Source of the DNA: Mustelus asterias
Lineage: Eukaryota
Length of the DNA stretch: 64,000 bases
Direction of reading: 5' to 3'
NCBI RefSeq assembly: GCF_964213995.1
Contig: NW_027591235.1
Span: 1 to 64,000, forward strand
Position 1 is the first letter of the stretch. Every line of letters starts with the position of its first letter. Shown here one piece after another: positions 3,378 through 64,000 of this stretch. The notes beneath the pieces are model-generated. The model did not search any database. It was not told the origin of the DNA and saw only the letters and a program-made list of their open reading frames with translations. The position numbers and the translations under genes are program-made.

Positions 3378-4358
3378 TCAGTCCTGGATATGATTAACAG
3401 CATCATTAAGAGTAGAATCCAAACCTTGCAGTCGTTTGTGAACTCGCTGGTGTGTTAGCAGGTGGGATGACTGAATAAATCCCTTTCCACAGACATTACA
3501 GGTGAACGGCCTCTCCCCAGTGTGAACTCGCTGGTGTTTCAGAAGATAAGATAAATGAGAAAATCCCTTCCCACAGACAGAGCAGGTAAGTGGCCTCTCC
3601 GCACTGTGAACTTTCTGGTGTGTCAGCAGGTTGGATGACTGACTGAATCCCTTCCCACACACAGAGCAGGTGAACGGCCTCTCCCCAGTGTGAACTCGCT
3701 GGTGATTCAATAAGTTGGATGAACGAGTGAATCCCTTCCCACAGTCTGAGCAGGTGAAGGGCCTCTCCCCAGTGTGAATTCTCTGGTGGTTCAATAGGGC
3801 AGATGGACGGCTGAATCCCTTCCCACACACACAGCAGGTGAATGGCCTCTCCCCAGTGTGAGCATATTGGTGCGTTAGCAGATCCTTTTTACTTTTAAAG
3901 CTCTTCGCACAGTGGGAACAATTAAAAAGTTTGTTATCAGAGTGAACAAGTTGATGTGTCTGCAAGTGGGATGACTGAATGAATCCTTTCCCACACACAG
4001 AGCAGGTGAACGGTCTCTCCCCAGTGTGAATTCGTTGGTGTGTCAGCAGATCCTTTTTGCATTTAAAACTCTTCTCACAGTCAGAACATGTAAACATTCT
4101 CTCATCAGTGTGAACAAGTTGGTGTGTCACAATGTGGGATGAGCGAGTGAATCCCTTCCCACACACAGGACAGGTGAACGGCCTCTCCCCAGTGTGAACC
4201 CGTTGGTGAGTCAGAAGGTTGTATGAATGGGTGAATCCCTTCCCACAGACGGAGCAGGTGAACGGTCTCTCCCCAGTGTGACTGCGCCGATGAACTTCCA
4301 GTTGTGATGGGAAACCGAATCCCTTCCCACAATCCACACATTTCCACGGTTTCTCCAT
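3378..4358 (-). CDS. C2H2 zinc-finger protein, 11 fingers, no visible effector domain
   Basis: 326-aa ORF MEKPWKC... with 11 CxxC...HxxxH fingers and TGERP linkers; ATG in CACCATGG context. Confidence 0.9.
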
Positions 4359-5339
4359 GGTGCGGGTGTCCTTGTGTTTCTCCAGGTTGGATGATCAGTT
4401 CAAGCCTCATCCACACACACAACATACACGTAGTTTCACCCTGCTGTGAACTGTGATGTTTTTTCAGGCTGTGTAACTGGTTAAAGCTCTTTCCACATTC
4501 AGTTCACTGGAACACTCTCACTCGGGTGTGTGTTTGTCTCGATGCTTTTCCAGTCACAGTGATGTTTAATTTCTTTGCCCACAGGCAGAACAGACAAATA
4601 TTTCTCTTTCTATATTCAAAGACCAATGATATTCAGCTCCGAAGGAACTGAATGACTTTGTCAGATGTGATGTCCGGTTTGAATTTTCTGTCTGCCAATC
4701 TTTCACTTCCAATATCCTGTAAAAACAGTTTAGAAAAGTCATCACTGTCAGAACACGATACAAACTCTGAACAGACAATTCTAGTTCGTCTGGAACATTT
4801 TTTCCTCTCTTGTTCCCCCAAATCTGTAAATCTCCGTCCCACACACTCTCCCTCTTCCCTGGGCTGAAATCCAAACCCATCTCTACCATTTCTTTCCTCC
4901 ACTCCCAGTTTTCTCCCTCCCTCTCCTCTGTCTGGGTTCAGTTCTCCAGCTCCTGTCTGCAGACTGACAATAAAACCAATGGGTCTTATTGGGGATGTTG
5001 GGGCCTCCAGCGGGTGTTTGTGAATCCTTCCCGCCCACCTCCCAGGGTTTCCTTCCTTCCCAGAGATCAGAACCCTCATTGATTTGAGGCCAAAGTGTAA
5101 CCTCTTATTTATTGTCCCCCTCCCCCATCCTCTGATGTGAACCATCCTCCAGTGGCTGAGCCAGGATGGGGCCGCTAACCTGGGCCTGTTCCCGGGAGGG
5201 AGGGAGGGAGAAGCCCCGCAGCTGCAAACCAGGGAGCTGACAATGATTCTGAAGGGTTTGCGGATCCACAAAGTGTTTCCAAATCCTCCCAGCCACCGCC
5301 GAACGCTGACTCCGCTTCTCCGGGACAAACAAGCGCCAA

Positions 5340-5613
5340 GGCCAGCAATGACACTGCGCATGCTCCACATCACAATGCCCGGGAGCTGATTGACGCCAGC
5401 TCCGGACCAATAGGAAGAGGGGGCGGGACTGGAGGACCGAGCGGGAGCGGCTGGTCCTCCAACCAATCGGAGTGAATGAGGGGCGGGACCTGAAGCATGC
5501 GCAGTGCGGGTAATGGCGGCGGCGGCGGCGGACGGACGGTTTCAACTTGGAAGCGAGAACAATACAAGGTAGAGGGCGGCGCGCGGGGAATGATAAATGT
5601 GGCGGGTGGGTGG
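5340..5613. promoter_or_regulatory. CpG-island promoter module (copy 1)
   Basis: Inverted NRF1-like sites CACTGCGCATGCT (5352..5364) and AGCATGCGCAGTG (5494..5506) enclose two CCAAT and two GGGGCGGG boxes; a YY1-like AATGGCGGC follows. Paralogs lie at about 14100 and 48000. Confidence 0.75.
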
Positions 5614-6465
5614 CCTTCAAAAAGAATACGGCCCGGCCGTACATCTTAGAGGCCGCGACAATGGCTGAGGGGCCGACAACCCCAGCCATTGCCTTGACAC
5701 AGGCCTCGATGGACATGTCGGGGTGGGCGTAGCACTTAACCCCGAGCTGCCGCGTGAGCAACGAAAAAGGTGGCAGGGCCTTGGGAGCGGCGGGGGCTCT
5801 GGCAGCCGCCACGCCCGCATAGGTGGGCCGAGAAGGCTCTGCCACGGCAGGACGTATAAGAGGAGGGAAAAATAAGGGAGGGCAGGGTAGGTGGATGGGG
5901 ATCTAGGTGCTCTCTCCCCGGAGCGAGAGAGGAGAGAGGAGGAGCAGGAGGGAGGACGAGGGACAAGGCACGGAGGGGGGCCGGTGCCCCAGTCAGGGGG
6001 AAAGAGGGGAGGGGGTGCCGGTGTTGGGGGCGCCGGTGTTGGGGGCAGCAGCAGTGGGTGGGGGACTTTACTCCTCCAGCCCTTTTGGGCGCAAACAGTT
6101 CAAGTCCGGGGTGTCTTCACCGCCGCCCCCCCCCCCAGATGGAAAAAACAGTCTGAATTTACTTCACCCCCCCCATCCCTTTCAGGCACCGACCTTCTGA
6201 TGATGAGGGCACCAGCCCAACCACTCAGTCCCTCGATGTTGAAACGTGCAGTCCTCCCTCCCATAGATGGAAAGAAAAAAGAAAGAAAGTCACTCCGTGT
6301 CCTCTCTCCCTCCAGGGAGAGAGCACCCTCCAGTGGGCGGACGGACGGAAGACAGGCAGGCCAGACGGCAGGCAGGCCAGACGACAGGCAGGCAGGCAGG
6401 CCGGACAGCAGGCAGGCAGGCAGGCAACAGCTCACCTTCCTCCCCCTTCCCACTTTGATGCTGGA
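5614..6465 (-). mobile_element. Tx1-clade LINE 5' fragment (5' UTR plus ORF1 N-terminus), 3'-truncated
   Basis: Peptide TYAGVAA...LTRQLGVKC...SIEACVKAMAGVVGPSAIVAASKMYGRAVFFLK resembles Tx1 ORF1 (recalled similarity). The segment is absent from the paralogous promoters. GGCA repeats lie at about 6345..6428. Confidence 0.75.
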
Positions 6466-6599
6466 ATTAACAAATTAACATTCCTGCCCGGTTCTGACCC
6501 GGGGACCTTTCGCGTGTCAGGCAAACGTGACAACCACTTCACTACAGAAACAACCTCTCTGATGTTGGAGACAGGAGGAAGTTTCAGTCTGTCTGAAGC

Positions 6600-7010: not shown

Positions 7011-7029
7011 ATGTAATTTAAACAATGCC

Positions 7030-8301
7030 TGAGATCACTTCACTTCTTGGTCAGACCCCCTTTTCAGTCCAGTGCTACTTGGAGTTTACCGTCAATTCAA
7101 CAACTATTGGGTTACAAGTCCCTCACAGTTCTGATCACAACTTCATGATAAAATAATTTAAATAATGCATGAGAACGCTTCTTACCGGACTACCTACCAC
7201 TGGTCAGACCCCCTTTTTACAGATTCGGGAATCTCAGCCACTGAACACCAGCCGGTCCTGGAATAAGTTTCATTCTCACTCATTCTGAGTAAATATTCTC
7301 ACCAGGTCCTCTGTCAGGACCCTGCTAAGCAGCTTTAATGGTTCATGATTGCAGAAACTGAGCAGTCACAGGAATGTGGTCAAGATAGTCCAGTCCCATA
7401 ATGCCGCACATTTAATCTGCAGTCCTTCAGTTATAACAGAATATGTGGCTGTATGTAGCCGCCTCGGCCACGATCAGCGCCAACACTGCCTTCCTGAACT
7501 GCTATAATGCCGAAGGTGTAAGTATACCCACAGTGCTGTTAGGGAGGGATTTCCAGCTACACATTCCACACTTCCTCTCGACTGTGGGTGGATACGCGAT
7601 TGAGACATTTCATTCAACTGCACTCAAGCTGAGTTATTCAAATCCCTTTATTGTACGGGACAATATATTCATGATTTCTTTAAAACAGAAATTAAACATT
7701 CCCATTTGATTTCAGGTATTAACATATTCTGTTAGTTTGTTCTTTATTGTCAATGTCAGGCTAGGGTTGTTCCCCTTGGAGCAAGGAGGTTGAGGGTAGA
7801 TTTGATAGAGGTGGACAAGATTCTGACAGGTTTAGATAAGATGGACAAAGAAAAGCTGTTCCCATTAGCTGACGAGAGAAGGACGAGGGGGACACAGATT
7901 TATGGTTTTGGGTCAGAGAGGAAGGGGGGATGTGAGGAAGAATATTTTGATGCAGTGAATGGTAATGACCTGGAACTCGCTGCCTACGAGGGTGGAGGAA
8001 GTGGAGACAATAAACAATTACAAAGGAAATTGGATGAGCATTTGGGAAGTTTCAAACAGAAATAGTAACTCTTAACTTCCTCACACCCTGTCACTCTGTG
8101 ATCCGTGTGAAATCTGAAACCAGGTATTCGCAACAAGACTCAAAGAGCATCAGCCCACTGGAGGCAAAGTCATGAGACCGGCCAGTCCAGCAGAAAGAAA
8201 CCCTCCGACCCTCCCCATTGACCAACTGTGAGAATGAACAAAATGCAGTCCTGGATGTAATTGAGAGCAGAAACAATAACAGCAGAATCCAACCCCTGAA
8301 A
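7030..8301 (-). repeat. Shared ZNF 3' cassette (3' UTR, CR1 relic, downstream module)
   Basis: Near-identical sequence occurs at 22891..23590, 41070..42325, 51100..52920 (interrupted), 57755..57995 (UTR only) and 62500..63514. Confidence 0.85.
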
Positions 8302-8976
8302 TCACTCATGAGCATTTTGGTGTCTCAGCAGGGCGGATGAAACTCTGAAACCCTTCCCACACTGAGAGCAGGTGAATGGTCTCTCCCCAGTGTGAACTCG
8401 CTGGTGTGTCCGCAGGGTGGATAATTGACTGAACCCCTTCCCACACTGAGAGCAGGTGAACGGTCTCTCCCCAGTGTGAACTCGCTGGTGAGTCCGCAGG
8501 GTGAATAAATCAGTGAATCCCTTCCCACACTGAGAGCAGGTGAACGGTCTCTCCCCAGTATGAAGGCGCTGGTGCGTCTGCAGGTTAGATAATTGACTGA
8601 ACCCCTTCCCGCACTGAGAGCAGGTGAACGGTCTCTCCCCAGTGTGAACTCGCTGGTGCTTCTGCAGGTTGGATAATTGACTGAACCCCTTCTCACACTG
8701 AGAGCAGGTGAACGGCCTCTCCCCAGTGTGAACTCGCTGGTGTCTCTGCAGCTGGGATACCCGAGTGAATCCCTTCCCACACTGAGAGCAGGTGAAGGGC
8801 CTCTCCCCAGTGTGAGCTCGCTGGTGTCTCTGCAGCTGGGATACCCGAGTGAATCCCTCCCCACACTGAGAGCAAGTAAATGGTCTCTCCCCAGTGTGGC
8901 TGTGCCGATGATCTTCCAGCTCTGATGGGGCTCTGTATCTCTTCCCACAGTCCCCACATTTCCATGGTTTCTCCAT
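8302..8976 (-). CDS. C2H2 zinc-finger protein, 8 fingers
   Basis: ORF from ATG 8976 (MEKPWKC) is 224 aa (8 x 28) and intact. Confidence 0.88.
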   Translation of the reverse strand: MEKPWKCGDCGKRYRAPSELEDHRHSHTGERPFTCSQCGEGFTRVSQLQRHQRAHTGERPFTCSQCGKGFTRVSQLQRHQRVHTGERPFTCSQCEKGFSQLSNLQKHQRVHTGERPFTCSQCGKGFSQLSNLQTHQRLHTGERPFTCSQCGKGFTDLFTLRTHQRVHTGERPFTCSQCGKGFSQLSTLRTHQRVHTGERPFTCSQCGKGFRVSSALLRHQNAHE

Positions 8977-10130
8977 GGTGCAGGTGTTCTTTCCTTTCTC
9001 TTCAGTTGAACACTCGTCCACACACAGAACAGTCCCCCCACCCCCGCTGTGAATGGTGTGATATTTATTGCTGTGTAACTGGTTAAAGCTCTTGAGTCAA
9101 TGCACTAGAACATACTCACTCCAGTGTTGCAGCGTGTTGGCACTTTTCCAGTCACACTGATGTTTGAAATCTTTTCAAGTCACCAGACCGGACAACCATT
9201 TCTCCTTGATTTAAAGGCCGATGATATTCAGGTCCCGAGGAATATGACTCTGTCAGATCTAGACACAACGTCTGAGATTTCGGTCTGTGATTCCTCTTTC
9301 AATTTCCTGTAAAACAAGTTTGCAGAGGTCATCAGTGTCAGTGCAGGATAGAAATTCAGAACAGACAATTCTAATTTCTATGGAACATTCTTTCCTCCCT
9401 CCAGACTCGAAACATTGGCTCTATTCTCTCTCTATCTGGGGGATAGCGTGGGAAATGATGCTGCGGTAGATCAGCCAATTCTCAATGAATGGTTGAGGCA
9501 GTTCGATGGGCTGAATGGCCAACCGCAGCTCCTGTTTCTTATGATTTGTGTGTGGTGGACAGGAAGCAGTGAGCATGGATCTGTCAATCAGCCTCAATCA
9601 GTACCTTCAGGAGAATTGGGAGGGTGAATATTAGATACAGCAGAGTGAGAATGGAGGGAGAGGGTGTGGGATGGAGATTCACAGCTTTGGGGATGAGAGA
9701 GGAAAGAATGTTCATTGGAAATTAGAATTGTCTGTTCTGAATTTCTATCCTGTGCTGACATTGATGATGTTTGTAAATTCCTTTTGCAGGATATCAGAAG
9801 GTGAAGATTTAAAGACGAATATCAAACCAAACCTCACATCAAAATCTAACATAGTCACTCAGTTCATTGGGACCTGAATATCATCGAGCTTTGAATCTAG
9901 AATGGAAATGTTTCTCTGCTCTGTCTGCTTCAGGAGATTTTAAACATCAGTGTGACTGGAAAAGCACCGAGACACACACACACTGAAACATGCACACACC
10001 TGAGTGACTGTGGAAAGAACTTTAACCAGTTAAACAGCCTGAAAATACATTGCAGCAGAGAGACCGCACCCATGTTATGTTGTAACTGAACTAATTGTCA
10101 AGCCTGGAGAGTCACAAGGACACCCGCACC

Positions 10131-10722
10131 ATGGAGAAATTGTGTAAATGTGGGGACTGTGGGAAAGGATTCAGGTTCCCATCTGCACTGGAAACTCATC
10201 GGCGCAGTCACACTGGAGAGAGACCATTCACCTGCTGTGTGTGTGGGAAGAGATTCACTCAGTTATCCCATTTACAAACACACCAGGGAGTTCACACTGG
10301 GGAGAGACCATTCACCTGCTGTGTGTGTGGGAAAGGATTCACTCGGTTAAACAATCTGCTGACCGACCAGCGCATTCACACCGGGGAGAGACCGTTCACC
10401 TGCTGTGTGTGTGGGAAGGGATTCACTCAGTTGCCCAACCTGTTGAGCCACAAGGTCACTCACACCCAAGACAGACCCTTTAAATGCTCTGACTGTGGGA
10501 GTGGCTTCAAAAGCTCTCGAGAACTGATGGTCCACCAACCCATTCACACTGACGAGAGACTGCTTAGCTGCTCTCACTGCACAAAGAGGTTTAGGAGGTC
10601 ATCCACATGGCAGAGACACCAGCGAGTTCACACTGGGGACAGACCGTTCACCTGCTCTGTGTGTGGGAAATGGATTCAATCGGTCATCCAACCTGCAGCG
10701 ACACCAACAAGTTCACAAGTGA
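10131..10722 (+). pseudogene. C2H2 zinc-finger gene, 7 fingers, damaged
   Basis: Starts MEKLCKC. Finger 3 has His>Asp, and a frameshift in finger 7 (GGGAAATGGATTC) precedes the family stop CAAGTGA. Confidence 0.75.
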
Positions 10723-10740
10723 TTGCAGGGGTTGGATTCT

Positions 10741-10773
10741 TTCTCTCTCAATCTTTCTCTCTCTCTCTCTCTC
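10741..10773. repeat. (CT)n microsatellite at a tail-to-tail ZNF junction
   Basis: TTCTCTCTCAATCTTTCTCTCTCTCTCTCTCTC joins two convergent ZNF remnants. Confidence 0.8.
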
Positions 10774-10919
10774 AGCAGATTCGATGAATGATTGAATCCC
10801 TTCCCACAAGTGGAGCATATGAACGGTCTCTCCCCGGTGTGACTGCGTCGATGAGATTCCACCCCAGATGGGGCTCTGAATCCCTTCCCACAGTCTCCAC
10901 ATTTCCATGGTTTCTCCAT
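10774..10919 (-). pseudogene. Truncated C2H2 zinc-finger gene (1.5 fingers)
   Basis: [48 protein letters not shown] breaks at the microsatellite; the 5' leader is internally deleted. Confidence 0.8.
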
Positions 10920-11474
10920 GGTGTCGGAGTCCTTGTGTCTCTCCACAATCAGTGCACTGGAACACTCTGATACGGGTGTGAGAATCTCAGTGCTTTTCCA
11001 GTCAAAACCTCTCCTTCCAATATCCACTGAAAGGAGTTTACAAAAATCATCACTGTCAGCACATGATAGAAATTCAAAACAGACAATTGTAGTTTCTATG
11101 GAACATTCTTTAAATCTCCACCCACGCCCCTCACACATACACTCTCTCTCTCATTCCATTTAGCATTCTGCGGCACGGTGGCACAGTGGTTAGCACCATC
11201 AGCTCCAAGTTCCCCTCCAACCCACACACCATCCTGACTTGTCTGACATCCAGGACTAAGAGAACAGAAATGTTTTCCATATAAATACTGGGAAGTCTGA
11301 ACCCATTGTCTTCAGTCCCCACGACAAACTCCACTCCCTGTCGGAGCCGGAACCAGGCTGTTCACAACCATGGTGAAATATTTCACTCCAGGATGAGCTT
11401 CCAGCCACATCATCATCAAGACTGCCTATTTCCACCTCAGTGACATCGTCCGACGCCACCCAGTCTCAACTCAT

Positions 11475-13355: not shown

Positions 13356-13363
13356 AATTTGGA

Positions 13364-13588
13364 ACCCTCACCCATTCCATTGTGACCTCACACTCTCACC
13401 CATTCCATTGTGACCTCACACTCTCACCCATTCCATTGTGACATCACACTTTCACCCATTCCATTGTGACGTCACACTCCGACCCATTCCATTGTGACGT
13501 CACACCCTCACCCATTCCATTGTGACATCACACACTCACACATTCCATTGTGACGTCACACCCTCACCCATTCCATTGTGACATCACT
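13364..13588. repeat. 28-bp minisatellite, 8 copies
   Basis: Unit CCCTCACCCATTCCATTGTGACNTCACA; TGTGAC recurs at 13381, 13409, 13437, 13465, 13493, 13521, 13549 and 13577. Confidence 0.95.
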
Positions 13589-13636
13589 CCCCGATCACAA
13601 TCCCTGCCGGCCTCCCACATGCAGCCTCAATGGCGG

Positions 13637-13888: not shown

Positions 13889-14004
13889 GGCGGCAGTCAG
13901 CCTGGGTCTAACACTACAAGCTGCTGCTCCATTTGGTACAAATGGGGGGACCGGGAAGTTCATTTCCGGGGTTTGGGTTGGAACAACATGTTTATGAAGC
14001 CTCT

Positions 14005-14280
14005 CCACCCACCCGCCACATTTAGCATTCCCCGCACGCCGCCCTCTACCTCGGATTGATCTCGCTTCCAGGTTAAAACTGTCCGTCTGTCCGTCGCCAT
14101 TACCCGCACTGCGCATGCTTCAGGTCCCGCCCCTCATTCACTCCGATTGGTTGGAGGTCCAGCCGCTCCAGCTCGGTCCTCCAGCCCCGCCCCCTCATCC
14201 TATTGGCCCGGAGCTGCCGTCAATCAGCCCCCGGGCATTGTGATGTGGAGCATGCGCAGTGTCATTGCTGTCCTTGGCGC
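14005..14280. promoter_or_regulatory. CpG-island promoter module (copy 2, inverted)
   Basis: Reverse complement of 5340..5613 with the same NRF1-like, CCAAT and GC boxes. Confidence 0.75.
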
Positions 14281-15249
14281 TTGTTTGTCCCGGAGAAGCG
14301 GAGTCAGCGTTAGGCGGTGGCTGGGAGGATTTGGAAACACTTTGTGGATCCGCAAACCCTTCAGAATCATTGTCAGCTCCCTGGTTTGCAGCTGCGGGGC
14401 TTCTCCCTCCCGGGAACAGGCCCAGGTTAACGGCCCCATCCTGGCTCAGCCACTGGAGGATGGTTCACATCAGAGGATGGGGGAGGGGGACAATAAATAA
14501 GAGGTTACACTTTGGCCTCAAATCAATGAGGACTCTGATCTCTGGGAAGGAAGGAAACCCTGGGAGGTGGGCGGGGAGGATTCACAAACACCCGCTGGAG
14601 GCCCCAACACCCCCAGTAAGACCCATTGGTTTTATTGTCAGTCTGCAGACAGGAGCTGGAGAACTGAACCCAATCAGAGGAGAGGGAGGGAGAAAACTGG
14701 GAGTGGAGGAAAGAAATGATGCAGATGGTGAGATGGGTTTAAGCCCAGGGAGAAGGGAGAGTGTGTGGGACGGGGATTTACAGATTTTGGGGAACAAGAG
14801 AGGAAAAAATGTTCCGGAGAAACTAGAATTGTCTGTTCAGGATTTCTATTCCGGACTGACAGTGATGACTTTTCCAAATTTTTTTTTACAGGATATTGGA
14901 AGTGGAGGATTGGTAGACAGAAAACTCAAACGAACATCATGACTGGCAAAGTCACTTTGTTCATTCAGAGCTGAAGATCATTGGTCTTTGAATGTGGGAG
15001 GAGAAATGTTTGACTCTTCTGTCTGTCGGCAAAGATTTTAAACATCAGTGTGACCGGAAAAGCATTGAAACAAACACACACCCGATTGAGAGTGTTCCAG
15101 TGAACTGACTGTGGAAAGAGCTTTAACCAGTCCACAGCCTGAAGAAACATCACACAGTTCACAGCAGGGTGAAACTACATGTATGTTGTGTGTGTGGACG
15201 AGGTTTCAACTGATCATCCAACCTGGAGAAACACAAGGGCACCAGCACC

Positions 15250-16309
15250 ATGGAGAAACCGTGGAAATGTGTGGATTGTGGGAAAGGATTCAGTTTCCCA
15301 TCACAACTGGAAGTTCATTGGTGCAGTCACACTGGGGAGAGACCATTCACCTCCTCCGTTTGTGGGAAGGGATTCACCCATTCATACAACCTTCTGACTC
15401 ACCAAAGGGTTCACACTGGGGAGAGGCCGTTCACCTGCCCTGTGTGTGGGAAGGGATTCACTCGCTCATCCCACATTGTGACACACCAACTTGTTCACAC
15501 TGATGAGAGAATGTTTCCATGTTCTGACTGTGGGAAGAGTTTTAAATGCAAAAAAGATCTGCTGACACACCAACGTATTCACACGGGAGAGACCATTCAC
15601 CTGCTCTGTGTGTGGGAAAGGATTCATTCAGTCATCCCACCTGCAGACACATCAACTTGTTCACTCTGACAACAAACTTTTTAATTGTTCCGACTGCGAA
15701 GAGCTTTAAAAACAAAAAGGATCTGCTGACGCACCAATATACTCACACTGGGGAGAGGCCATTCACCTGCTGTGTGTGTGGGAAGGGATTCAGCCGTCCA
15801 TCTGCCCTACTGAACCGCCAGAGAATTCACACTGGGGAGAGGCCTTCACCTGCTCAGACTGTGGGAAGGGATTCATTAATTCATCCAACCTTCTGACACA
15901 CCAGCAGGTTCACAGTGAGGAGAGGCCATTCACTTGCTCCGTGTGTGGGAAGGGATTCACTCTTTCATCCAACTTATTGAACCACCAGCGGGTTCACACT
16001 GGGGAGAGGCCGTTCACCTGCTCCATGTGTGGGAAGGGATTCAGTCAGTCATCCAACCTGCTGACACATCAGAGAGTTCACAGTGCGGAGAGACCATTTA
16101 CCTGCTCTGTCTGTGGGAAGGGATTTTCTCATTTATCTTATCTTCTGAAACACCAGCGAGTTCACACTGGGGAGAGGCCGTTCACCTGTAATGTCTGTGG
16201 AAAGGGATTTATTCAGTCATCCCACCTGCTAACACACCGGCGAGTTCACAAGGGACTGCAAGGTTTGGATTCTACACTTATCGATGCTGTTAATCATATC
16301 CAGGACTGA
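15250..16309 (+). pseudogene. C2H2 zinc-finger pseudogene, 12 fingers; inverted paralog of 3378..4358
   Basis: Same finger series and the same [14 protein letters not shown] tail, with frameshifts near 15586, 15692 and 15843. Confidence 0.88.
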
Positions 16310-17214
16310 ATCATGTTCACTCTGACTTTTTTCTTCTGTTGAGGTTTGATATTCTGAATAAATGTGAAATAGACATTTGATTGAATCATTGTTGTAGATT
16401 TTTGTCTTTTCCATTTGAGTGTTTAACGTCACCAGGCTGGAGCTCAGAAAGGGCAATCTGAGGGAGGATACAGTAGGAACAGAACTTCATTCTAGACCCA
16501 GTCCTTCAGGGTCACGCTGAGAGGGACAAACAGCACTTTGGTCTTTTTCGTCACTTTTCACTGACAGCAAAGTCCCCGTGTGGGTGAATCCTGAGGTGTG
16601 AAAAAAATGTGTCCCAGCCGCTCTTTTCCATGGTTCCGAGCTCCCAGACATGGAACAGAAGCTCCTTTACAACTGTGTTTAGAGTCAGGAAGAACAATGG
16701 TGAATGCTGGAAACGTGCTGTCAAAGATTGGTGTAAAACTGGGATCTATTCCTGACTGAGAGTGAAACGGCAGGTTTAGGTTTCCAGACTAAAAATGCAA
16801 AAAAGTCTAAAACATTTTAATGTGTGTGTGTCAGTCCTGGTTTATTGAACAGAAACTGGCTTCAAATAAATTGGTTGAAGTCTGCATTAAAGTAGCAGCT
16901 GGAGACGTTCAAAGGAGCCTGTTAACTGCTGGGACAATGAGACAACAATTTGATTCCGAGATAGAGAAGGAGCTGCAGTGTGTGTCCAAGAATTCTCAGT
17001 TTTGTTGATGTGTGCTTCCCATACACTATCCTTCTAAATAAACCTCACTCCTATCAGCCTTTAACCATTATAAACAGAACAGAGAGAAGCTGAGCAGCAT
17101 CAGAGCCCTGACTGACCATTTGAGAATGAGTGATGTGTTCAGCTGAAGTTTCCTGTTGGTAGTTTTCTGGGTGATCTCCTTATTTTGATCATTCTCAGTG
17201 ACCCCTGGGTGTGA

Positions 17215-21330: not shown

Positions 21331-22047
21331 TCACCCACGTTGGCAGCAAGTTCAATATCATCAGTCACAACCCCCCTGTATCTTCACTAACCGAATCAAT
21401 CCATTTGAAACATTTTTAGTCGAGAATGTCGCTATATTTCTGTTAGACTGGCAGTCTGCATGGAGATTTTCAGCTGTGTGTGTCCAGGACAGGAAGCAGT
21501 GAGCATGGATCTGTCAATCAGCCTCAATCAGCACCTTCAGGAGAATTGGGAGGGTGAATATTAGATACAGCAGAGTGAGAATGGAGGGAGAGTGTGTGGG
21601 ATGGAGATTTACAGCTTTTGGGGAATGAGAGTGGAAAGAATGTTCCACAGAAACTAGAATTGTCTGTTCTGAATTTCTATCCTGTACTGACTGTGATGAA
21701 TTTTGTAAATTGTTTTTACAGGATATTAGAAGAGGAATCACACCGATAAATCTTAACGATCACATCTCGATCTGACAGAGTCACTCGATTCCTTGGAAAC
21801 TAAATATCCTCAGCCTCTGAATGGGAAGGAGAAATGTTTGACTGCAAGATTTTAAGCAGCAGTGTGACTGGAAAAACACCGGGACACAAACACACACCTG
21901 AGTGAGAGTGTTCCAGTGCACTGACAGTGGAAAGAGCTTTAACCAGTGACACAGCCTGAAAATACATTGCAGCATTCACAGCAGGGAGAGACCATACCGT
22001 GTTCTCTGTGTGGACAAGGTTTCAAATGATACAAGGAGACTGAAAAT

Positions 22048-22890
22048 ATGGAAAAACCATGGAAATGTGAGGACTGTGGGAAGAGATACAAAGCGCCCTC
22101 TCTACTGGAAGCTCATCGGCACAGCCACACTGGGGAGAGGCCGTTCACCTGCTGGGTGTGTGGGAAGGGATTCATTGATTCATCCACTCTGCAGAGACAC
22201 CAGCAAGTTCACACTGGTGAGAGTGCATTCACCTGCTGTCAGTGTGGGAAGGGATTTACTCAGATATCAAGCCTGCAGACACACCAGCGAGTTCACACTG
22301 GGGAGAGGCCATTCACCTGCTCTCAGTGTGGGAAGGGATTCAGTAAGTCATCCAACCTACAGAAACACCAGCGAGTTCACACAGGAGAGAGGCCATTCGG
22401 CTGCTCTGCATGTGGGAAAAGATTCACTCAGTTATCTCAGCTGCGGGCACACCAGCGAGTTCACACTGGGGAGAGACCATTCACCTGCTCTCAGTGTGGG
22501 AAGGGATTCACTCAATTGTACAGCCTGCAGACACACCAGCGCAATCACACTGGGGAGAGGCCATACAGTTGCTTTCAGTGTGGGAAGGGATTCATTCATT
22601 TATCAAACCTGCAGACACACCAGCGAGTTCACACTGGGGAGAAGCCATTCACCTGCTCTCAGTGTGGAAAGGGATTCACTCAGTTATCTAATCTGCGGAG
22701 ACACCAGCGAGTTCACTCTGGAGAGAGGCCGTTCACCTGCCCCGTGTGTGGGAAGAGATTCACTCGGTTATCCACCCTGCAATCACACCAGCGAGTTCAC
22801 ACCGGGGAGAGACTGTTCATCTGCTCTCAGTGTGGGAAGGGATTCTGTGATTCATCCACCCTGCTGAAACACCAACAAGTTCACAAGTGA
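22048..22890 (+). CDS. C2H2 zinc-finger protein, 10 fingers
   Basis: Intact 280-aa ORF MEKPWKC...HQQVHK. Confidence 0.9.
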
Positions 22891-28627: not shown

Positions 28628-30625
28628 TCACTTGTGAACTCACTGGTGTTTCACCAAGTTTGCTGACTGAGTGAATCCCTTCCCAGTCAGAGCAGGTGAC
28701 CAGCCTCTGCCTGGTGTGAACTCACTGGTGGGACATTAGTTCCCAAGAGCTTTTGAAGCCACGCCCACATTTAAAGGGTCTCTCCTGGGTGTGATGATGT
28801 TGTGTCTGGGCAGGCTGGATAACCGAGTAAATCCTTTCGCACACACCGAGCAGGTGAATGGTTTCTCCCCGGTGTGAACTCACTGGTGTTTCAGCAGTGT
28901 TGATGATATTCTAAACCTCCTTGAACAGTGAGAGCAGCTGAACGGCCTCTCCCCGGTGTGAATGTGCTCGGGGATCATCAGTTCCTGAGAGCTTCTGAAG
29001 CCGGCCTCTCAGGCAGAGCATTTAAAGGGGCTCTCCTTGGAGTGAGTGGCTTTGTGTCTCAGCAGGCTGGATGAAGCAGTGAATCCCTTCCCACACACAG
29101 AGCAGGTGAATGGTCTCTCCCCGGTGTGAACTCGCTGATGTTCCCCCAGACTGGATGACCTTTTAAATCTCTTTGTTCAGTGAGAGCAGCTGAATGGTCT
29201 CTCCTCAGTGTGAGTGCGCTGGTGGGACACCAGGTCCTGAGAGCTTTTGAATCCGCTCCCACAGTCAGAGCATTTAAATGGTCTCTCATTAGCGTGAGTG
29301 ACTTTGTGTCTGAGCAGGCTGGATGACTGAGTGAATCCCTTCCCACACACAGAGCAGGTGAACGGCCTTTCCCCGGTGTGAACTCGCTGGTGTGTCTGCA
29401 GGTTGTATAATGTTCTAAATCTCTTTGTGCAGTGAGAGCAGCTGAACGGTCTCTCCTCAGTGTGAATGCGCTGGTGGGACACCAGATCCTGAGAGCTTTT
29501 GAATCCACTCCCACAGTCAGAGCATTTAAACGGTTTCTCATTGGTGTGAGTGGCTTTGTGTTTCTGCAGGCTGGATGACTGAGTGAATCCCTTCCCACAC
29601 ACAGAGCAGGTGAATGGTCTCTCCCCAGTGTGAACTCGCTGATGTTCCCACAGGCTGGATGACCTTTTAAATCTCTTTGAGCAGTGAGAGCAGCTGAACG
29701 GTCTCTCCTCAGTGTGAATGCGCTGGTGGGACACCAGATCCTGAGAGCTTTTGAATCCGCTCCCACAGTCAGAGCATTTAAATGGTCTCTCATTGGTGTG
29801 AGTGACTTTGTGTGTGTGCAGGTTTGATGAATGAGTGAATCCCTTCCCACACACTGAGCAGGTGAACGGTCTCTCCCCGGTGTGAACTCGCTGGTGTCTC
29901 CGCAGGTCAGATGAAGTTCTAAATTTCTTTGAGCAGTGAGAACAGCTGAACGGTCTCTCCTCAGTGTGAATGCGCTGGTGGATCATCAGTTCCCCAGAGC
30001 TTTTGAAACCACTCCCACAGTCAGAGCATTTAAATGGTCTCTCATTGGTGTGAGTGAGATTGTGTTTCAGCAGGTGGGATAACTGAGTGAATCCCTTCCC
30101 ACACACAGAGCAGGTGAATGGTCTCTCCCCAGTGTGAACTCCCTGGTGTGTTTGTAAATGGGATGACTGAGTGAATCCCTTCCCGCACACAGAGCAGGTG
30201 AATGGTCTCTCCCCAGTGTGAACTCGCTGGTGTATCTTCAGGTTGGATGAAGTTCTAAATTTCTTTGTGCAGTGAGAGCAGGTGAACGGTCTCTCCTCAA
30301 TGTGAGTGCGCTGGTGGGACACCAGTTCCCCAGAGCTTTTGAAGCCACTCCCACAGTCAGAGCATTTAAATGGTCTCTCAATGGTGTGAGTGAGATTGTG
30401 TTTCTGCAGGCTGGGTAACTGACTGAATCCCTTCCCACACACAGAGCAGGTGAATGGCCTCTCCCCAGTGTGAACTCGTTGGTGTCTCTGCAGATTAGGT
30501 AAGTCAGTGAATCCCTCCCCACACACAGAGCAGGTGAATGGCCTCTCCCCAGTGTGACTGCGTTGATGAATTTCCAGAAGAGATGGGAACATGAATCTCT
30601 TCCCACATTTCCATGGTTTCTCCAT
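28628..30625 (-). CDS. Long C2H2 array: 16 intact fingers before a premature TGA (29177..29179); decayed fingers continue to the ancestral stop at 28628
   Basis: ATG at 30625. Finger 1 has lost three codons (WKCGKRF). TGC>TGA occurs in finger 18, and finger-like sequence continues beyond it. Either a truncated gene or a pseudogene. Confidence 0.8.
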
Positions 30626-37941: not shown

Positions 37942-38587
37942 GTCCTTTTTAGTTTTGGGGATAAAACAAAAAGGGGCTGTAACCAAAGAAAAACAAACAA
38001 ACAACCTTCCTCGCCGAAGCCCTGTGAGCCAAAGCCCTTTTAGCTCTCACTCTGTCCCCTGCTCACTCCACTGCCCGCTAACGACGCTGCCCGCTCAAAG
38101 GTGCGGCCTACTTTTAAACCCTCCAAAATCTTCCCAGGCTGCTGCTGGGCCTATTTCCTGTTTAGAAAAAAAACCTCTGATTTTTTTCACTAATTTAACT
38201 GAAAAATAATTAAATAAATTAGTGCACAAACAAGCTCCCTTACCCTCAGCCTGCTCCTGTGGAACAATGAGGCTGAAACCTCCAAGTTAAGCACTTTTAA
38301 CCAGAGTACAGATAACAGAGCACAGCACGAAAATTCAAAATTATAGGTAAATGTTCAACAATACTCACCTCTGAAACAATTTCACTGTTTTCTAATTTGA
38401 AACCTGCGGCTGGAAAGATGTCAGAAGCACTGGAATCAGAGAAAAATTGCAATCTTCAAATATTCTAACTCCCTGCAAAAGATTACAAGAGTCATGTGTT
38501 AATTGTGGCTTGAAATTAAGAGATACACATTTTTTGGGGGTTTGAGATTGCTTGAAAATGCTCTTCTTCTAACCAAGGAGATTCCAA

Positions 38588-42325: not shown

Positions 42326-43000
42326 TCACTCGTGAATTGGTTGGTGTCTCAGCAGGGTGGATGAAGCTCTGAAACTCTTCCCACACTGAGAGCAGGTGAA
42401 TGGTTTCTCCCCAGTGTGAACTCGCTGATGTGTCTGCAGGGCGGATGACTGAGTGAATCCCTCCCCACACTGAGAGCAGGTGAATGGTCTCTCCCTGGTG
42501 TGAACTCGCTGGTGTCCTCGCAGGCTGGATAAGTCAGTGAATCCCTTCCCACACACAGAGCAGGTGAACGGTCTCTCCCCAGTGTGAATTCGCTGGTGTC
42601 CTCGCAGGCTGGATAAGTCAGTGAATCCCTTCCCACACACAGTGCAGGTGAACGGTCTCTCCCCAGTGTGAACTCGCTGGTGTGTTCGCAAGTGGGATGT
42701 CTGAGTGAATCTCTTCCCACACTGAGAGCAGGTGAACGGTCTCTCGCCAGAATGAACTTGCTGATGTGTCTGCAGGCTGGATAACCAAGTGAAACCCTCC
42801 CCACAGTGAGAGTAGGTGAAAGGCCTCTCCCCAGTGTGAACTCGCTGGTGTGTCCGCAGATTCGATAACTGACTGAATCCCTTGCCACAGACACAGCAAG
42901 TGAATGGTCTCTCCCCAGTGTGACTGCGCCGATGAGCTTCCTGCTGAGATGGGGATATGAATCCCTTCCCACAGTCCCCACATTTCCACGGTTTCTCCAT
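42326..43000 (-). CDS. C2H2 zinc-finger protein, 8 fingers (finger 3 Cys>Tyr)
   Basis: Open 224-aa ORF from ATG 43000; same flanks as the gene at 8302..8976. Confidence 0.85.
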
Positions 43001-47168: not shown

Positions 47169-47643
47169 GTTCTGTGGAACATTGTTTCCTCACTTGTTCC
47201 TGTAAAGCAGTAAATCCTCATCCTGAACACTTTCCCTCCTCCCTGTCCTGCAACCAACTCCCACATTAACCAACCATCTCATATTTCAATGGATTGTCCC
47301 ATGACTCCAGTGTGCCAGGCTGCATGGTGTATGGGCGCTGTTTCACCCATAAGATGGATCTGTGCAGCACCCTCTTCCAACTGTTCTGGCTGCCAACCAG
47401 CCCGTGCCCACCCACACAGTTCCAGCAGCACCGCACACAATACTGCTCACCTGCTCCGACAGACTCATGAAGGATGTCCTTTTATTTTCTCTGAGAGAGT
47501 TGGTCAGCCTGGCAAACCCAGTGTGAAATATCTTCACAAATCTTTTCTCCCACCCTCTATTCTGGCTGGGTTCAGTTCTTTTGTACAGAGTGAATATAAA
47601 ATCAATTATTTTCTCTCCTGGTCACTGCAGGGAGCTGCAGCTT

Positions 47644-48425
47644 CTTATTGGGGGTGTTGGGGCCTCCAGCGGGTGTTTGTGAATCCTCCCCGCCCACCTC
47701 CCAGGGTTTCCTTCCTTCCCAGAGATCAGAGTCCTCATTGATTTGAGGCCAAAGTGTAACCTCTTATTTATTGTCCCCCTCCCCCATCCTCTGATGTGAA
47801 CCATCCTCCAGTGGCTGAGCCAGGATGGGGCCGTTAACCTGGGCCTGTTCCCGGGAGGGAGGGAGGGAGAAGCCCCGCAGCTGCAAACCAGGGAGCTGAC
47901 AATGATTCTGAAGGGTTTGCGGATCCACAAAGTGTTTCCAAATCCTCCCAGCCACCGCCTAACGCTGACTCCACTTCTCCGGGACAAACAAGCGCCAAGG
48001 ACAGCAATGACACTGCGCATGCTCCACATCACAATGCCCGGGGACTGATTGACGGCAGCTCCGGACCAATAGGAAGAGGGGGCGGAGCTGGAGGACCGAG
48101 CGGGAGCGGCTGGTCCTCCAACCAATCGGAGTGAATGAGGGGCGGGACTGAAGCATGCGCAGTGCGGGTAATGGCGACCCAAAGACGGTTTTAACTCGGA
48201 AGCGAGATCAATACGAGGTAGAGGGCGGCGTGCGGGGAATGATAAATGTGGCGGGTGGGTGGAGAGCCTTTGTAAACATGTTGTTCAAACCCAAACCCCG
48301 GAAATGAACTTCCTGGTTCCCCCCTTTGTACCCAATGGAGCGGCAGCTTGTAGTGTTAGACCCGGGCTGACTGCCGCCATTGAGGCTGCATGTGGGAGGC
48401 CGGCAGGGATTGTGATCGGAGAGGG
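47644..48425. promoter_or_regulatory. CpG-island promoter module (copy 3) with flanks
   Basis: Matches 4986..5613 directly and 13590..14620 in inverted orientation, without the LTR. Confidence 0.75.
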
Positions 48426-48430
48426 AAGCC

Positions 48431-49245: not shown

Positions 49246-49249
49246 TATA

Positions 49250-49920: not shown

Positions 49921-51099
49921 ATGGAGAAACCATGGAAATGTGCAGACTGTGGGAAGGGATACAGATCCCCATCAGAGCTGGAAACTCATCGGCGCAGCCA
50001 CACTGGGGAGAGACCATTCATCTGCTCTCACTGTCGGGAAGGATTTAATCAGTTATCCCACCTGCAGTCACACCAGCGCGTTCACACTGAGGAGAGGCCA
50101 TTCACCTGCTCGCAGTGTGGGAAGGGATTCATTCAGTTATCCAGCCTGCAGACACACCAGCAAGTTCACACTGGAGAGAGGCCATTTACCTGCTCTCAGT
50201 GTGGGAAGGGATTCACTCGGTCATTCCACCTGCAGAGACACCAGCGAGTTCACACTGGGGAGAGGCCATTCACCTGCTCTCAGTGTGGGAAGAGATTCAC
50301 TCGGTCATCCCACCTGCAGAGACACCAGCGGGTTCACACTGGGGAGAGGCCATTCACCTGTTTTCAGTGTGGGAAGGGATTCACTCAGTCATCCAACCTG
50401 CGGACACACGAACGGGTTCACACTGGGGAGAGACCGTTCACCTGCTCTCAGTGTGGGCAAGAATTCACTCAGTTAGCCGACCTGCAGAGACACCAGCTAC
50501 GTCACACAGGGGAGAGGCCGTTCACCTGCTCTCAGTGTGGGAAGGGATTCACTCAGTCATCCCACCTGCGGATACACCAGCGAGTTCACACTGGGGAGAA
50601 ACCATTCATCTGCTCTCAGTGTGGGCAGGGATTCACTCAGTCATCTGACCTGCGGACACACCAGCGAGTTCACACAGGAGAGAGGCCGTTCACCTGCTCT
50701 CAGTGTGGGAAGGGATTCACTCGGTCAACCCACCTGCAGACACACCAGCGAGTTCACACTGTGGAGAAACCATTCATCTGCTCTCATTGTGGGAAGGGAT
50801 TCACAAACTCATCTGACCTGCTGACACACCAGCGAGTTCACACAGGGGAGAGGCCGTTCACCTGCTCTCAGTGTGGGAAGGGATTCACTCGGTCAACCCA
50901 CCTGCGGACACACCAGCGAGTTCACACTGGGGAGAGGCCATTCACCTGCCCTCAGTGTGGGAAGGGATTCACTCAGTCATCTGACCTGCGGATACACCAG
51001 CGAGTTCACACTGGCGAGAGACCATTCACCTGCTCTGTATGTGGGAAGGGATTCAGAGTTTCATCCCACCTGCTGAGACACCAACAAGTTCACGAGTGA
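49921..51099 (+). CDS. C2H2 zinc-finger protein, 14 fingers
   Basis: Intact 392-aa ORF (14 x 28) from CACCATGG at 49921. Confidence 0.9.
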
Positions 51100-55677: not shown

Positions 55678-55681
55678 TAAC

Positions 55682-56743: not shown

Positions 56744-57272
56744 GGATTGATCTTGGGTTAAACTTCCTGTCAGGTCCAAAGATTTATTCCTGACGCAAGT
56801 AACACAAAGAAAAGGAAAATTCTGGAATTGGATACTGAAGAAAAGAGTTTACAAAGAGAGAGTATTAAATAGAAATGTTCCCAGATCATGTGGTCATTCG
56901 ATTAAAACAAAGGAAGAGTGCTGACGTCCATGAGAACTTTTAATCCACCCCATTTCTAACTAAGGGAGTCTAAGTACAAAGAAAGCCCAAGAAAGACCCC
57001 CCCAAGGGGGGTCTGGAAAGCATCATGATGAGGGCACCTGTCCATGAGATGATCACAAAGCCCCATAATGCCCAGATACTAATTTTATTGAACCTATGAT
57101 GTATGTAATCTATCACCATTCTGATTGGATTGTGTCCAGCCGGGATGGGCTGAGTAACTGGATAAGAATTGATGATATTCTTTGTTGGGTGGAGTTACAC
57201 ATGGTCAGCCCCTGTGGCTTCTCCCCGCTGGCCCAGCTCAATAAACTGTTTGTCGATTGAATCAGGCACAAC

Positions 57273-57754
57273 ACACTGGGAAGAGATACAAAGTGCCCTC
57301 TCCACTGGAAGCTCATCGGCACAGCCACACTGGGGAGAGGCCGTTCACCTGCTGGGTCTGTGGGAAGGGATTCACTGATTCATCCACTCTGCAGAGACAC
57401 CAGCAAGTTCACACTGGTGAGAGTGCATTCACCTGCTGTCAGTGTTGGAAGGGATTTACTCGGATATCAAACCTGCAGACACACCAGTGAGATCACACAG
57501 GGGAGAGACCATACAGCTGCTTTCAGTGTGGGAAGGGATTTACTTGGATATGAAGCCTGCAGACACACCAGTGAGATCACACTGGGGAGAGACCATACAG
57601 CTGCTTTCAGTGTGGGAAGGGATTCAGTAAGTCATCCAACCGACAGAAACACCAGCGAGTTCACACTGGGGAGAGGCCATTCACCTGTTCTCAGTGTGGG
57701 AAGGGACTTTGTAATTCATCCACCCTGCTGAGACACCAGCGAGTTCACAAGTGA
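57273..57754 (+). pseudogene. 5'-truncated C2H2 pseudogene, paralog of 22048..22890
   Basis: [12 protein letters not shown]...[23 protein letters not shown] matches the 22048 gene; several in-frame TGA stops. Confidence 0.85.
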
Positions 57755-58237
57755 ATATGGGCATTAGAGTCTGCTGTTATTGTTTCTGCTCTCAATTACA
57801 TCCAGGACTGCATTTTGTTCATTCTCACAGTTGGTCAATGGGGAGGGTCGGAGGGTTTCTTTCTGCTGGACTGGCCGGTCTCATGACTTTGCCTCCAGTG
57901 GGCTGATGCTCTTTGAGTCTTGTTGCAAATACCTGATTTCAAATTTCACAAGAATGACAGAGTGACAGGGTGTGAGGAAGTTCAGAGATATTTAGTCAGC
58001 TGTCACCTCATTTACCTCGTCTATACTTCCCCTTTACCAGAATGTTCCATACCCGAATGTATGCATTCCTTTAAACTGCACTTTCCGGAGTTCTGGAGAA
58101 TCTTTTAAAACATGAAATATACTCATAATATCTTTAAAAAGAAACCGAACATTTCACAGTAACTTCATTGCAGTGTTAATGCAAGTCTAGTTGTGACACT
58201 AATAAATAAACTTTAAAAACTTTAAGAATATTTGAAG

Positions 58238-61403: not shown

Positions 61404-62325
61404 ACGTTTCGCAATATACATTAATGATTTGGAAGATGGAACTGAAGGCATTGTTGCTAAGTTTGCAGATGATACAAAGATATGTAGAGGGGCAGGTAGT
61501 ATTGAGGAAGCAGAGGGGCTGCAGAAGGACTTTGATGGGCTAGGAGAGTGGGCAAAGAAGTGGCAGATGGAATACAATGTGGAAAAGTGTGAGATTATGT
61601 ACTTGGGGAGGAGGAATGGAGACATCGACTATTTCCTAAATGGGGAAATGTTTCAGAAATCAGAAGCACAAAGGGACTTGGGAGTCATTGTTCAAGATTC
61701 TCTTGAAGTTAACGTGCAGGTTTAGTTGGCAGTTCGAAAGGCAGATGCAATGTTAGCATTCATGTCAAGAGGGCTAGAATACAAGAGCAGCGATGTACTT
61801 CTGAGACTGTATAAGGCTCTGGTCAGACCCCATTTGGAGTATTGTGAGCAGTTTTGAGCCCCACATCTAAGGAACGATATGCTGGTCTTGGAAAGGGTCT
61901 GGAGGAGCTTCACAAGAATGATCTCTGGAATGAAGAGCTTGTCGTATGAAGAATGGTTGAGGACTCTGGGTCTGCACTCATTGGAGTTTAGAAGGATGAA
62001 GGGAGATCTTATTGAAACTTAGTGGGAAAAAACTAGAGGGCACAACCTCAGGCTAAAGGGATGATCCTTTAAAACAGAGATGAGGAGGAATTTCTTCAGC
62101 CAGAGAGTGGTGAATCTGTGGAACTCTTTGCCACAGAAGGCTGTGAAGGTCAGTTCATTGAGTGTCTGTAAGACAGAGATAGATAGGTTCTTGATTAATA
62201 AGGGGATCAGGGGTTATGTGGAAAAGGCAGGAGAATTTGGATGAGAAAAATATCAGCCATGATTGAATAGCGGAGAAGACTCGATGGGCCGAGTGGCCTA
62301 ATTCTGCTCCTGTGTCTTATGGTCT
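61404..62325 (+). mobile_element. 5'-truncated CR1 inserted in the right inverted-repeat arm
   Basis: YINDL...AKFADDTK...WNSLP; same subfamily as 11475..12698. Confidence 0.85.
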
Positions 62326-63514
62326 AAGCTCACAACTCCTTGATTAAAATAAGACACAAGATCCTTCATTCCCCTTCATTATAACTTAAACTTTTTTTAG
62401 CCAACTTCCAAGGCCTGATTTTATCGGAAACATCAAGTCTTTGTTGATTTAAAATCCCAAACATGTTGCCAGCTGCAAAATCTTTGTTTTAGCTAATTTT
62501 AGCTCATTCTGAGTAAATATTCTCACCAGGTCCTCTGTTGGGGCCCTGCTAAGCAGCTTTAATGGTTCATGATTGCAGAAACTGAGCAGTCACAGGAATG
62601 TGGTTAAGATAGTCCAGTCCCACAATGCCTCACATTCAATCTGCAGTCCTTCAATTATAACAGAATATGTGGCTGTATGTAGCTGCCTCGGCCATGGTCA
62701 ACCCCAACACTGCCTTCCTGAACTGCTACAATGCCTGAGGTGTAAGTACACCCACAGTGCTGTTAGGGAGGGATTTCCAGCTACACATTCCACACTTTCA
62801 CTAGACTGTAGGTGGATATCAGATTGAGGTATTCCATTCAACCACACCCAAGGTGAGTTATTCCAATTCTGTTATTGTCCAGGACAATATATTCACAATA
62901 TCATTAAAACAGAAATTAAACATTCCCATTTGATTTCAGGTATTAACATATTCTGTTAGTTTGTTCTTTATTGTCGATGTCAGGCTGGGGTTGTTTCCCT
63001 TGGAGCAAAGGAGGTTGAGGGGAGATTTGATAGAGGTGGACAAGATTCTGACAGGTTTAGATAAGGTGGACAAAGAAAAGCTGTTCCCATTAGCTGATGA
63101 GACAAGGATGAGGGGGACACAGATTTAAGGTTTTGGATCAGAGATGCGTGGGGGTGGGATGTGACGAAGAATATTTTGATGCAGCGAATGGTAATGAGCT
63201 GGAACTTGCTGCCTACGAGGGTGGAGGAAGTGGAGACAATAAACAATTACAAAGGAAATTGGATGGGCATTTGAGGGGATTTCAAACAAAAATAGTGACT
63301 CTTAACTTCCTCACACCCTGTCACTCTGTGATCCTTGTGAAATTTGGTAACACGACTCAAAGAGCATCAGCCCACTGGAGGCAAAGTCATGAGACCGGCC
63401 AGTCCAGCAGAAAGAAACCCTCCGACCCTCCCCATTGACCAACTGTGAGAATGAACAAAATGCAGTCCTGGATGTAATTGAGAGCAGAAACAATAACAGA
63501 AACAACCCCTGGAA

Positions 63515-64000
63515 TCACTCGTGAACTTGTTGGTGTCTCAGCAGGGCGGATGAAAGACTGAATCTCTTCTCACACACAGAGCAGCTGAACGGTCTCTCCC
63601 CAGTGTGAACTCGCTGGTGTATCTGGAGGTGGGAGGACCGAGTGAATCCCTTCGCACATTGAGAGCAGGTGAACGGCTTCTCCCCAGTGTGAACTCGCTG
63701 GTGTGTCAGCAGGCTGGATGACTGAGTGAATCCCTTCCCACACTGAGAGCAGGTGAATGGCCTCTCCCCAGTGTGAACTCGCTGGTGTATCTGCAGCTGG
63801 GATGACTGAGTAAATCCCTCCCCACATTGAGAGCAGGTGAATGGCCTCTCCCCAGTGTGAACTCGCTGGTGTGTCTGCAGGTGGGATGACCGACTGAATC
63901 CCTCCCCACATTGAGAGCAGGTGAATGGCCTCTCCCCAGTGTGAACCCGCTGGTGTGTCTGCAGGTGGGATGACTGAGTGAATCCATTCCCACACTGAGA
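63515..64000 (-). CDS. C2H2 zinc-finger gene, 3' part (about 6 fingers), running off the window
   Basis: Open frame [25 protein letters not shown]... to the stop at 63515..63517, followed by the shared 3' cassette. Confidence 0.8.

Follow-up and report, generated by a model that had tools for sequence, protein, structure and literature searches.

Predicted finger-only C2H2 zinc-finger genes form a very large family in the shark Mustelus asterias

Among the systems described so far, the FiNZ-ZNF genes of cyprinid fish are one of the closest to the C2H2 zinc-finger (ZNF) gene family that we report here from the shark Mustelus asterias, starting from a stretch of 64,000 bases (NCBI RefSeq assembly GCF_964213995.1, contig NW_027591235.1, positions 1 to 64,000), the whole of which is called the window below. 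In the parts of PMC10547256 drawn on here, the FiNZ genes of zebrafish chromosome 4q resemble the shark family in forming clusters of hundreds of tandem, lineage-specific C2H2 genes within a region rich in repeats and immune genes, in keeping the array in one exon, in showing positive selection at the base contacts and in belonging to a KRAB-free lineage. They encode a conserved N-terminal peptide of 28 amino acids (aa), whereas the upstream exons of the shark genes are non-coding and their leader is closed by stops. The shark family is also several times larger. Transposon repression, which for the shark genes would be a predicted role, has been shown for FiNZ: according to the same source, knockdown of FiNZ-ZNF genes in zebrafish derepresses transposons, and ZNF number tracks retroelement number across animals. 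The main text of that paper, as far as it is drawn on here, does not mention sharks; its supplement holds 475-3,586 multi-finger open reading frames (ORFs) in the eight chondrichthyan assemblies looked up.

The KRAB-ZNF clusters of tetrapods and lobe-finned fish (PMC2604467, PMC11603059 and PMC10380595, each in part) are similar in their segmental duplication, in the gain and loss of fingers and in selection at helix positions -1, 3 and 6; unlike them, the shark arrays have no KRAB exon nearby and a leader that is closed in frame. Reviews cited in this set give TRIM28 as absent in fish, and the passages used of PMC8455134 and PMC11603059 describe cartilaginous fish as lacking KRAB-ZNFs. Poly-ZF genes without an annotated N-terminal domain, many of which are recorded in the sections used of PMC2604467, are alike in that finger-only proteins occur in all species analysed, with selected expansions in fugu, zebrafish and frog and selection at -1/3/6 across vertebrates. 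Those sections leave it open whether the annotation of such genes is incomplete, whereas the shark DNA carries a decayed leader with stops common to shark lineages. Recently duplicated zinc-finger clusters are described in catshark (PMC11979771, in part). Large shark zinc-finger counts (PMC10547256 supplement) and contact-site selection in other vertebrates are, on the portions of these sources used, already known. A literature search that excluded subscription journals and supplement files 3-5 of PMC10547256 found no account of this gene structure, with 0 matches to 'MEKPWKC'. By the features tested, the shark family belongs to the vertebrate poly-ZF expansion as a very large variant made of fingers only, and is not a KRAB-, SCAN- or FiNZ-ZNF family.

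C2H2 genes of this family number in the thousands in the genome, and their predicted proteins consist of fingers only, beginning at MEKPWKC. The 21-base start motif has 2,670 exact matches in the 3.68-Gb genome and 0 for the reversed control, a count that misses copies with an altered motif. Since 93 of the first 100 places in contig order precede contig C71, about 2,577 lie on C71 and the later, smaller contigs; copies are found in both orientations, a few of them singly on other chromosomes. From first-listed matches, one sub-motif and neighbours we assembled a non-random sample of 134 distinct genes, in which 95 of the 131 complete members have an intact ORF with at least five fingers; in the first sample the contact fingerprints were distinct in all 82 arrays. 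Homologues with species names come from horn shark, white shark and sawshark, and a search with the N-terminal 42 residues returned 11 matches, one of them from a shark.

In the window, a six-frame scan recovered the eleven C2H2 arrays that the sequence-only reading, an earlier inspection made without database searches, had claimed (Table 1). Five are intact to their natural end, one is long but damaged, four are broken and one is cut by the window end; the family shows the Kruppel-type poly-ZF organisation, with at least five C2H2 fingers joined by TGEKP-type linkers. The shared architecture proposed in that reading is present in most copies but not in all. MEKPWKC begins eight of the eleven loci, while one has MEKLCKC, locus 10 is headless and the part at 63515-64000 is cut by the window end; the ATG is retained in nine. 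The acceptor CAG/GATAT is exact in seven loci, reads CAG/GAAAT in one, is mutated in one and is absent or cut off in two. Instead of the 7 to more than 20 fingers first counted, the intact loci carry 11, 8, 10, 7 and 14, and the locus with more than 20 units (locus 7) has 16 in its open frame, its lead finger being deleted and a premature stop present.

Very probably, the proteins are composed of fingers only. No KRAB, SCAN or BTB domain was found among the listed Pfam matches of the window's finger and head ORFs (three finger ORFs, with the best 25 matches for two of them, and six head or upstream ORFs), as the sequence-only reading had held. No Pfam family was matched by 104 further non-finger window ORFs of at least 75 aa, out of 115 candidates; the other 11 were scanned separately, overlie the V segment described below, or were left out. 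Genome-wide, KRAB gave three matches among 76 scored candidates, all on contig C20, which we take to be PRDM9-like. With SCAN, 150 of 604 genome candidates were scored; they are dispersed, and none lies on C71 or in the sampled C12 and C23 clusters. The BTB search was confined to the window and found none in its ORFs. No coding upstream exon of FiNZ type was found in frame, on the evidence of the leader and mini-exon given below and with no FiNZ profile searched. Word-indexed searches, which are weak evidence, returned no longer protein containing the spacer. Against 1.84 billion proteins, the mini-exon/spacer frame gave five matches: two truncated shark models without an effector and three unrelated TPR proteins. 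As a separate observation, the C20 matches (L161-L163, G000:C20:1.60-1.72 Mb) are three PRDM9-type KRAB exons in tandem, spaced by about 55 kb, which suggests duplicated PRDM9-like genes.

The coding structure is set by a dead leader, a decayed spacer followed by about three dead fingers. It shows no codon periodicity (0.189/0.196/0.190 over the three positions, versus 0.07/0.10/0.16 in finger 1), and 75 of 119 genes have a stop 13 codons ahead of the ATG. Among the 95 intact sampled genes, an acceptor was identified in 71, at a median of 350 bases upstream of the ATG, and in none of these 71 is the frame open from acceptor to ATG, so an exon spliced to that acceptor cannot be fused to the fingers. 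In 55 of the 95 no YAG follows the last stop, and a strong donor near the ORF end was found in 0 of 95. The database models of white shark and sawshark end at GFN and QTSV, respectively, which are the two leader stops of this family, and this suggests that closure of the leader dates back to the ancestor of sharks. Together with the closed frames, these models uphold the effector-less coding structure first proposed. The Heterodontus (horn shark) model has the same spacer and MEKPWKC. Since the ATG occupies the glycine site of a TGEKP linker behind decayed fingers, the start may have arisen anew inside an older array. Read-through of the conserved TGA codons was ruled out by leader length modulo 3 (30/23/18). 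The intact ancestral form TGEKPWKC gave a single genome match, which is a gene with tandem lead-type fingers and not ancestral; this locus (L169, G000:C16:92884613-92887639) has five tandem lead-type WKC fingers, ACG in place of ATG and an otherwise open array. A 14-pair inverted repeat in the leader (window ~21860-21926 and equivalents), a candidate RNA stem, overlaps one conserved stop; in 68 of the 108 clade representatives, pairing holds for 89% of cells. Compensatory changes number 5 versus 3.6 in shuffles (p 0.29), which gives the stem no support from covariation, with a median folding z of -1.0.

Upstream of the leader lies a conserved block that includes a 66-base mini-exon; a 28-base piece of the block has 1,442 genome matches. 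Of 68 copies of the mini-exon, 56 have an ATG, which opens a 19-aa upstream ORF (uORF) when unspliced. As a coding effector exon it was ruled out: variation is flat over codon positions in the 68 copies, no frame shows periodicity and conservation continues into the intron. A lone processed fragment on C21 (L170, G000:C21:59923163-59926181) has the mini-exon joined exactly to the main exon, next to a repeat that we presume to be Penelope-like. Transcription of locus 1 is supported by one spliced joint: a GT-AG junction 6193 -> 4715 into its acceptor occurs in two RNA-like runs of one sample and not in the DNA-like run, in a contig comparison that covered 14 kb of the window (loci 6-11 lie outside). 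The sequence-only reading had named beforehand three outcomes that would speak against it, namely an added effector exon, neutral contact residues and lack of expression, and none of these was found.

True positive selection at the contact residues is likely. Using 18 disjoint paralogue pairs picked by non-coding identity and 30 anchored first or last fingers, the ratio of nonsynonymous to synonymous differences (pN/pS) at -1/3/6 is 2.68 (bootstrap 95% interval 2.15-3.32), as against 0.02 at structural positions, 1.15 at other helix positions and 0.68 in the remaining backbone, all estimates resting on non-independent paralogues. In 24 pairs, the contact ratio remains at 2.0-2.9 when kappa is varied from 1 to 4 and when CpG sites are left out. 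A maximum-likelihood codon model of 51 genes, with a tree built from leaders and three contact codons, gives an omega of 4.5 at contacts and 0.05 at structural codons, and an omega of 1 is rejected at the contact codons (2dlnL 15.7 and 14.7 in two models). Thus the excess expected at the helix positions -1, 2, 3 and 6 holds for -1/3/6, but position +2 is not diversifying (pN/pS 0.56). Zinc ligands of intact genes show 1 change in 472 sites, a mark of purifying selection, and broken genes show structural changes at 6 of 48. In the locus 9 clade the leaders are 95% alike and eleven arrays are all different, with 5-14 fingers. The PRDM9 finger minisatellite is comparable, with a homogenised backbone, hypervariable contacts and rapid change of finger number; unlike PRDM9, the shark genes have no KRAB or SET domain and number thousands instead of one. 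The expansion is lineage-specific with positive selection at -1, 3 and 6, the locus 1 clade excepted; there, change is mainly gain and loss of whole fingers. Beyond the residues of the search motif, the lead finger retains Asp in 68, Pro+1 in 68 and Glu+5 in 66 of 71 genes, and its contact positions are variable. The motif itself set its Trp and Lys, which are excluded as evidence of conservation.

The flanks do not share one history with the arrays. The 3' flank common to six loci, as first noticed, is 89-97% identical, and a 27-base piece of it has 852 genome matches. The contrast drawn earlier between conserved flanks and helices that turn over is not general: leaders are only 69-89% alike between window loci, so not every flank is conserved, and helices of the locus 1 clade are near-invariant. 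The first 9-20 kb of the window (two to four genes) recurs, with 92-98% identity, in each of the five places compared, and one copy of locus 2 whose leader is 99.4% identical carries 17 fingers where locus 2 has 8. Copies of a 145-base block differ by 7.8% however far apart their leaders are (mean 23%; Spearman -0.01; Mantel p 0.52). Homogenisation by conversion accounts for this better than slow inheritance does, with strong stabilising selection as the alternative. Amplification as a unit thus stands as to its genome-wide scale, but it is multi-gene blocks that are copied, and arrays and flank modules have separate histories; the spread is segmental duplication with module exchange and not that of one fixed cassette. 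The fixed ends and copy-by-copy dispersal of a mobile element were not found, given the multi-gene synteny and retained introns, although no dedicated search for terminal repeats or target-site duplications was made. One recurrent block also takes in a neighbouring T-cell-receptor V segment, whose protein is identical at 13 places; 150 relatives were scored, many of them on zinc-finger contigs. This segment (window 227-703, minus strand, 2.7 kb from locus 1) is intact and alpha/delta-like, the chain being our assumption, with a leader exon and a heptamer-23-nonamer signal.

Our preferred explanation, to which we give even chances as a whole, is that these genes encode finger-only, fast-changing readers directed against transposons that engage a partner through the lead finger. 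On this view the ancestral gene would have been stripped of its N-terminal coding part before the divergence of sharks, with a new ATG taking over as the start. Arrays would be reshuffled by unequal crossover and gene conversion, which would also homogenise the 145-base block and the 3' flank. The family might act as a rapidly renewed library of DNA readers against transposons, with a separate co-repressor recruited through the conserved lead finger. That transposons are the main targets is a tentative step, which we put just short of an even bet, and the lead finger as a partner surface is rather doubtful. A bolder version is improbable: that this is the largest vertebrate anti-transposon finger library without a fused effector, with a two-sided lead WKC finger whose variable residues read DNA and whose fixed Asp, Pro, Glu and Arg dock a common co-repressor. 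If most members are bare arrays selected for new specificities, sequence-specific repeat control needs no fused repressor, which would bear on the origin of the KRAB and FiNZ systems. Through the common leader and mini-exon, hundreds of members could be knocked down together, as with FiNZ genes, and so the question is testable.

Several points weigh against this explanation. The start-motif count may take in both haplotypes. The Heterodontus model leaves out the dead fingers and has acquired an N-terminus of low complexity; in 16 of the 95 intact genes a YAG with at least 9 of 15 pyrimidines follows the last in-frame stop, so that a minority could be N-terminally extended; and leaders carry a median of three upstream ATGs, which could limit translation. 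The RNA joint is one contig per run, with 27 letters on its short side and runs of unrecorded type, and could derive from any near-identical copy. As for selection, recombination between paralogues can inflate dN/dS, inclusion of position +2 drops omega to 1.5 (not significant), and pS is 0.17 in terminal fingers versus 0.06 in flanks, which points to fingers that are not orthologous. The nearly unchanging helices of the locus 1 clade mean that turnover is not family-wide, the private residues of the lead finger may reflect only its place at the array edge, and a window dense in transposons does not demonstrate targeting.

Alternatively, the same readers could be aimed at satellites, viral DNA, their own promoters or lineage-specific regulatory DNA, and not mainly at transposons: selection on contact residues does not tell what is bound, fixed host targets would suit the clade whose helices are stable, and the genes have near-identical promoter-like heads besides the block present 1,442 times. 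We nevertheless consider this rather unlikely, as the link between ZNF and retroelement counts (sharks are in the table) and the zebrafish knockdown favour transposons, by analogy only. It is also unlikely that most of the family is a side effect of a repeat-rich region prone to recombination, where duplication, conversion and unequal crossover would generate the copies and contact residues would be merely unconstrained, since relaxed constraint would give a ratio near 1 where 2-4.5 is observed, and zinc ligands are near-invariant in intact genes; the recurrence of multi-gene blocks at 96-98% identity in every place compared, the V segment carried along, the 36 of 131 complete sampled genes that are not intact and the block divergence unrelated to leader divergence would all agree with it.

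A small effector might instead be hidden, as a FiNZ-like peptide reached through a late acceptor, as a C-terminal exon or as the uORF peptide of the mini-exon. The FiNZ peptide, at just 28 aa in its own exon (PMC10547256, in part), sets a precedent, and the mini-exon is spliced and usually has an ATG, with plausible late acceptors in the minority mentioned; against this stand its lack of codon periodicity, the many genes without a late YAG, the absence of strong donors in the 95 intact genes and the protein search that yielded no shark model with an effector, so that we find a hidden effector quite unlikely. Finally, each cassette might itself be mobile by transposition or retrotransposition, as both orientations and the few single copies on other chromosomes could indicate. 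This is extremely improbable: introns are kept in clustered copies and in most of the dispersed ones examined, a spliced mini-exon junction occurs once versus 1,442 unspliced blocks, and homology spans several genes, a multi-gene synteny by which this possibility is already largely refuted.

Table 1 Features of the window, with window positions and strand.
Feature	Position	Strand	Description
Locus 1 ORF	3378..4358	-	MEKPWKC, 326 aa, 11 fingers, intact; clade with near-invariant helices
Locus 1 dead leader	4359..4716	-	Spacer and decayed fingers; ATG frame interrupted by several stops; main exon first base 4716
Locus 1 intron	4717..6193	-	Skipped in RNA-like contigs; contains GC-rich promoter-like head 5190-5613
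3' flank type A, locus 2	8066..8301	-	
Locus 2 ORF	8302..8976	-	224 aa, 8 fingers, intact
Locus 3	9557..10787	+	Mini-exon, acceptor 9790, MEKLCKC ORF from 10131, 5 intact fingers, degraded
Locus 4	10713..11111	-	Fragment (10919-): acceptor mutated, leader deleted, 1 intact finger
Locus 5	13889..16957	+	Inverted frameshifted paralogue of locus 1 (~90% alike), promoter-like head, ATG 15250
Conserved non-coding block	21488..21640	+	66-base mini-exon (21488-21553) and intron start; copies ~9557, 31400, 43590
Locus 6 ORF	22048..22890	+	280 aa, 10 fingers, intact; acceptor 21722
Other 3' flank A copies	22891-23136, 42090-42325, 51100-51337, 57755-58000, 63299-63514		
Locus 7	28630..30625	-	482-aa ORF 29177-30625, 16 intact fingers; further broken units
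Intact CR1-type LINE (long interspersed element)	33989..38046	-	Esterase-like ORF1, endonuclease/reverse transcriptase ORF2; context, outside the cassette
Locus 8 ORF	42326..43000	-	224 aa, 7 intact fingers and one minus a cysteine; acceptor 43357
Promoter-like head, third copy	47643..48378	-	~95% to 13889-14621
Locus 9 ORF	49921..51099	+	392 aa, 14 fingers, intact
Locus 10	57270..58000	+	Headless partial copy akin to locus 6, three stops
Locus 11	63299..64000	-	Last five fingers and 3' flank A; window end cuts the remainder

Some smaller observations concern the upstream modules. The third promoter-like head possibly serves locus 8, and a 28-base tandem repeat adjoins two of the heads (window 13364-13636 and 48374-48599). 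At 9306-9790 two genes stand head to head; their acceptors are separated by less than 500 bases and the interval lacks a promoter-like head, so at least one of the two must be transcribed from farther away or silent. The conserved block contains CTGTCAATCA at 21509-21518, which we take to be the reverse of a PBX/PKNOX-type site, and similar motifs occur in the promoter-like heads. On the minus strand at 5620-6551, a tRNA-like sequence (6479-6551), the one match of the Rfam scan, precedes a stretch that holds the RNA-supported donor 6193; this stretch has no Pfam match and presumably resembles the start of a Tx1-clade ORF1.

The window had been described as dense with CR1, Penelope and SINE (short interspersed element) copies. 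For CR1 this is borne out by protein similarity over 15,805 of the 64,000 bases, while the other two labels are presumptive: an endonuclease tail at ~45640-46015, without a Pfam match, is presumably of Penelope type, and a repeat of ~320 bases that recurs across the window is one that we assume to be a SINE.

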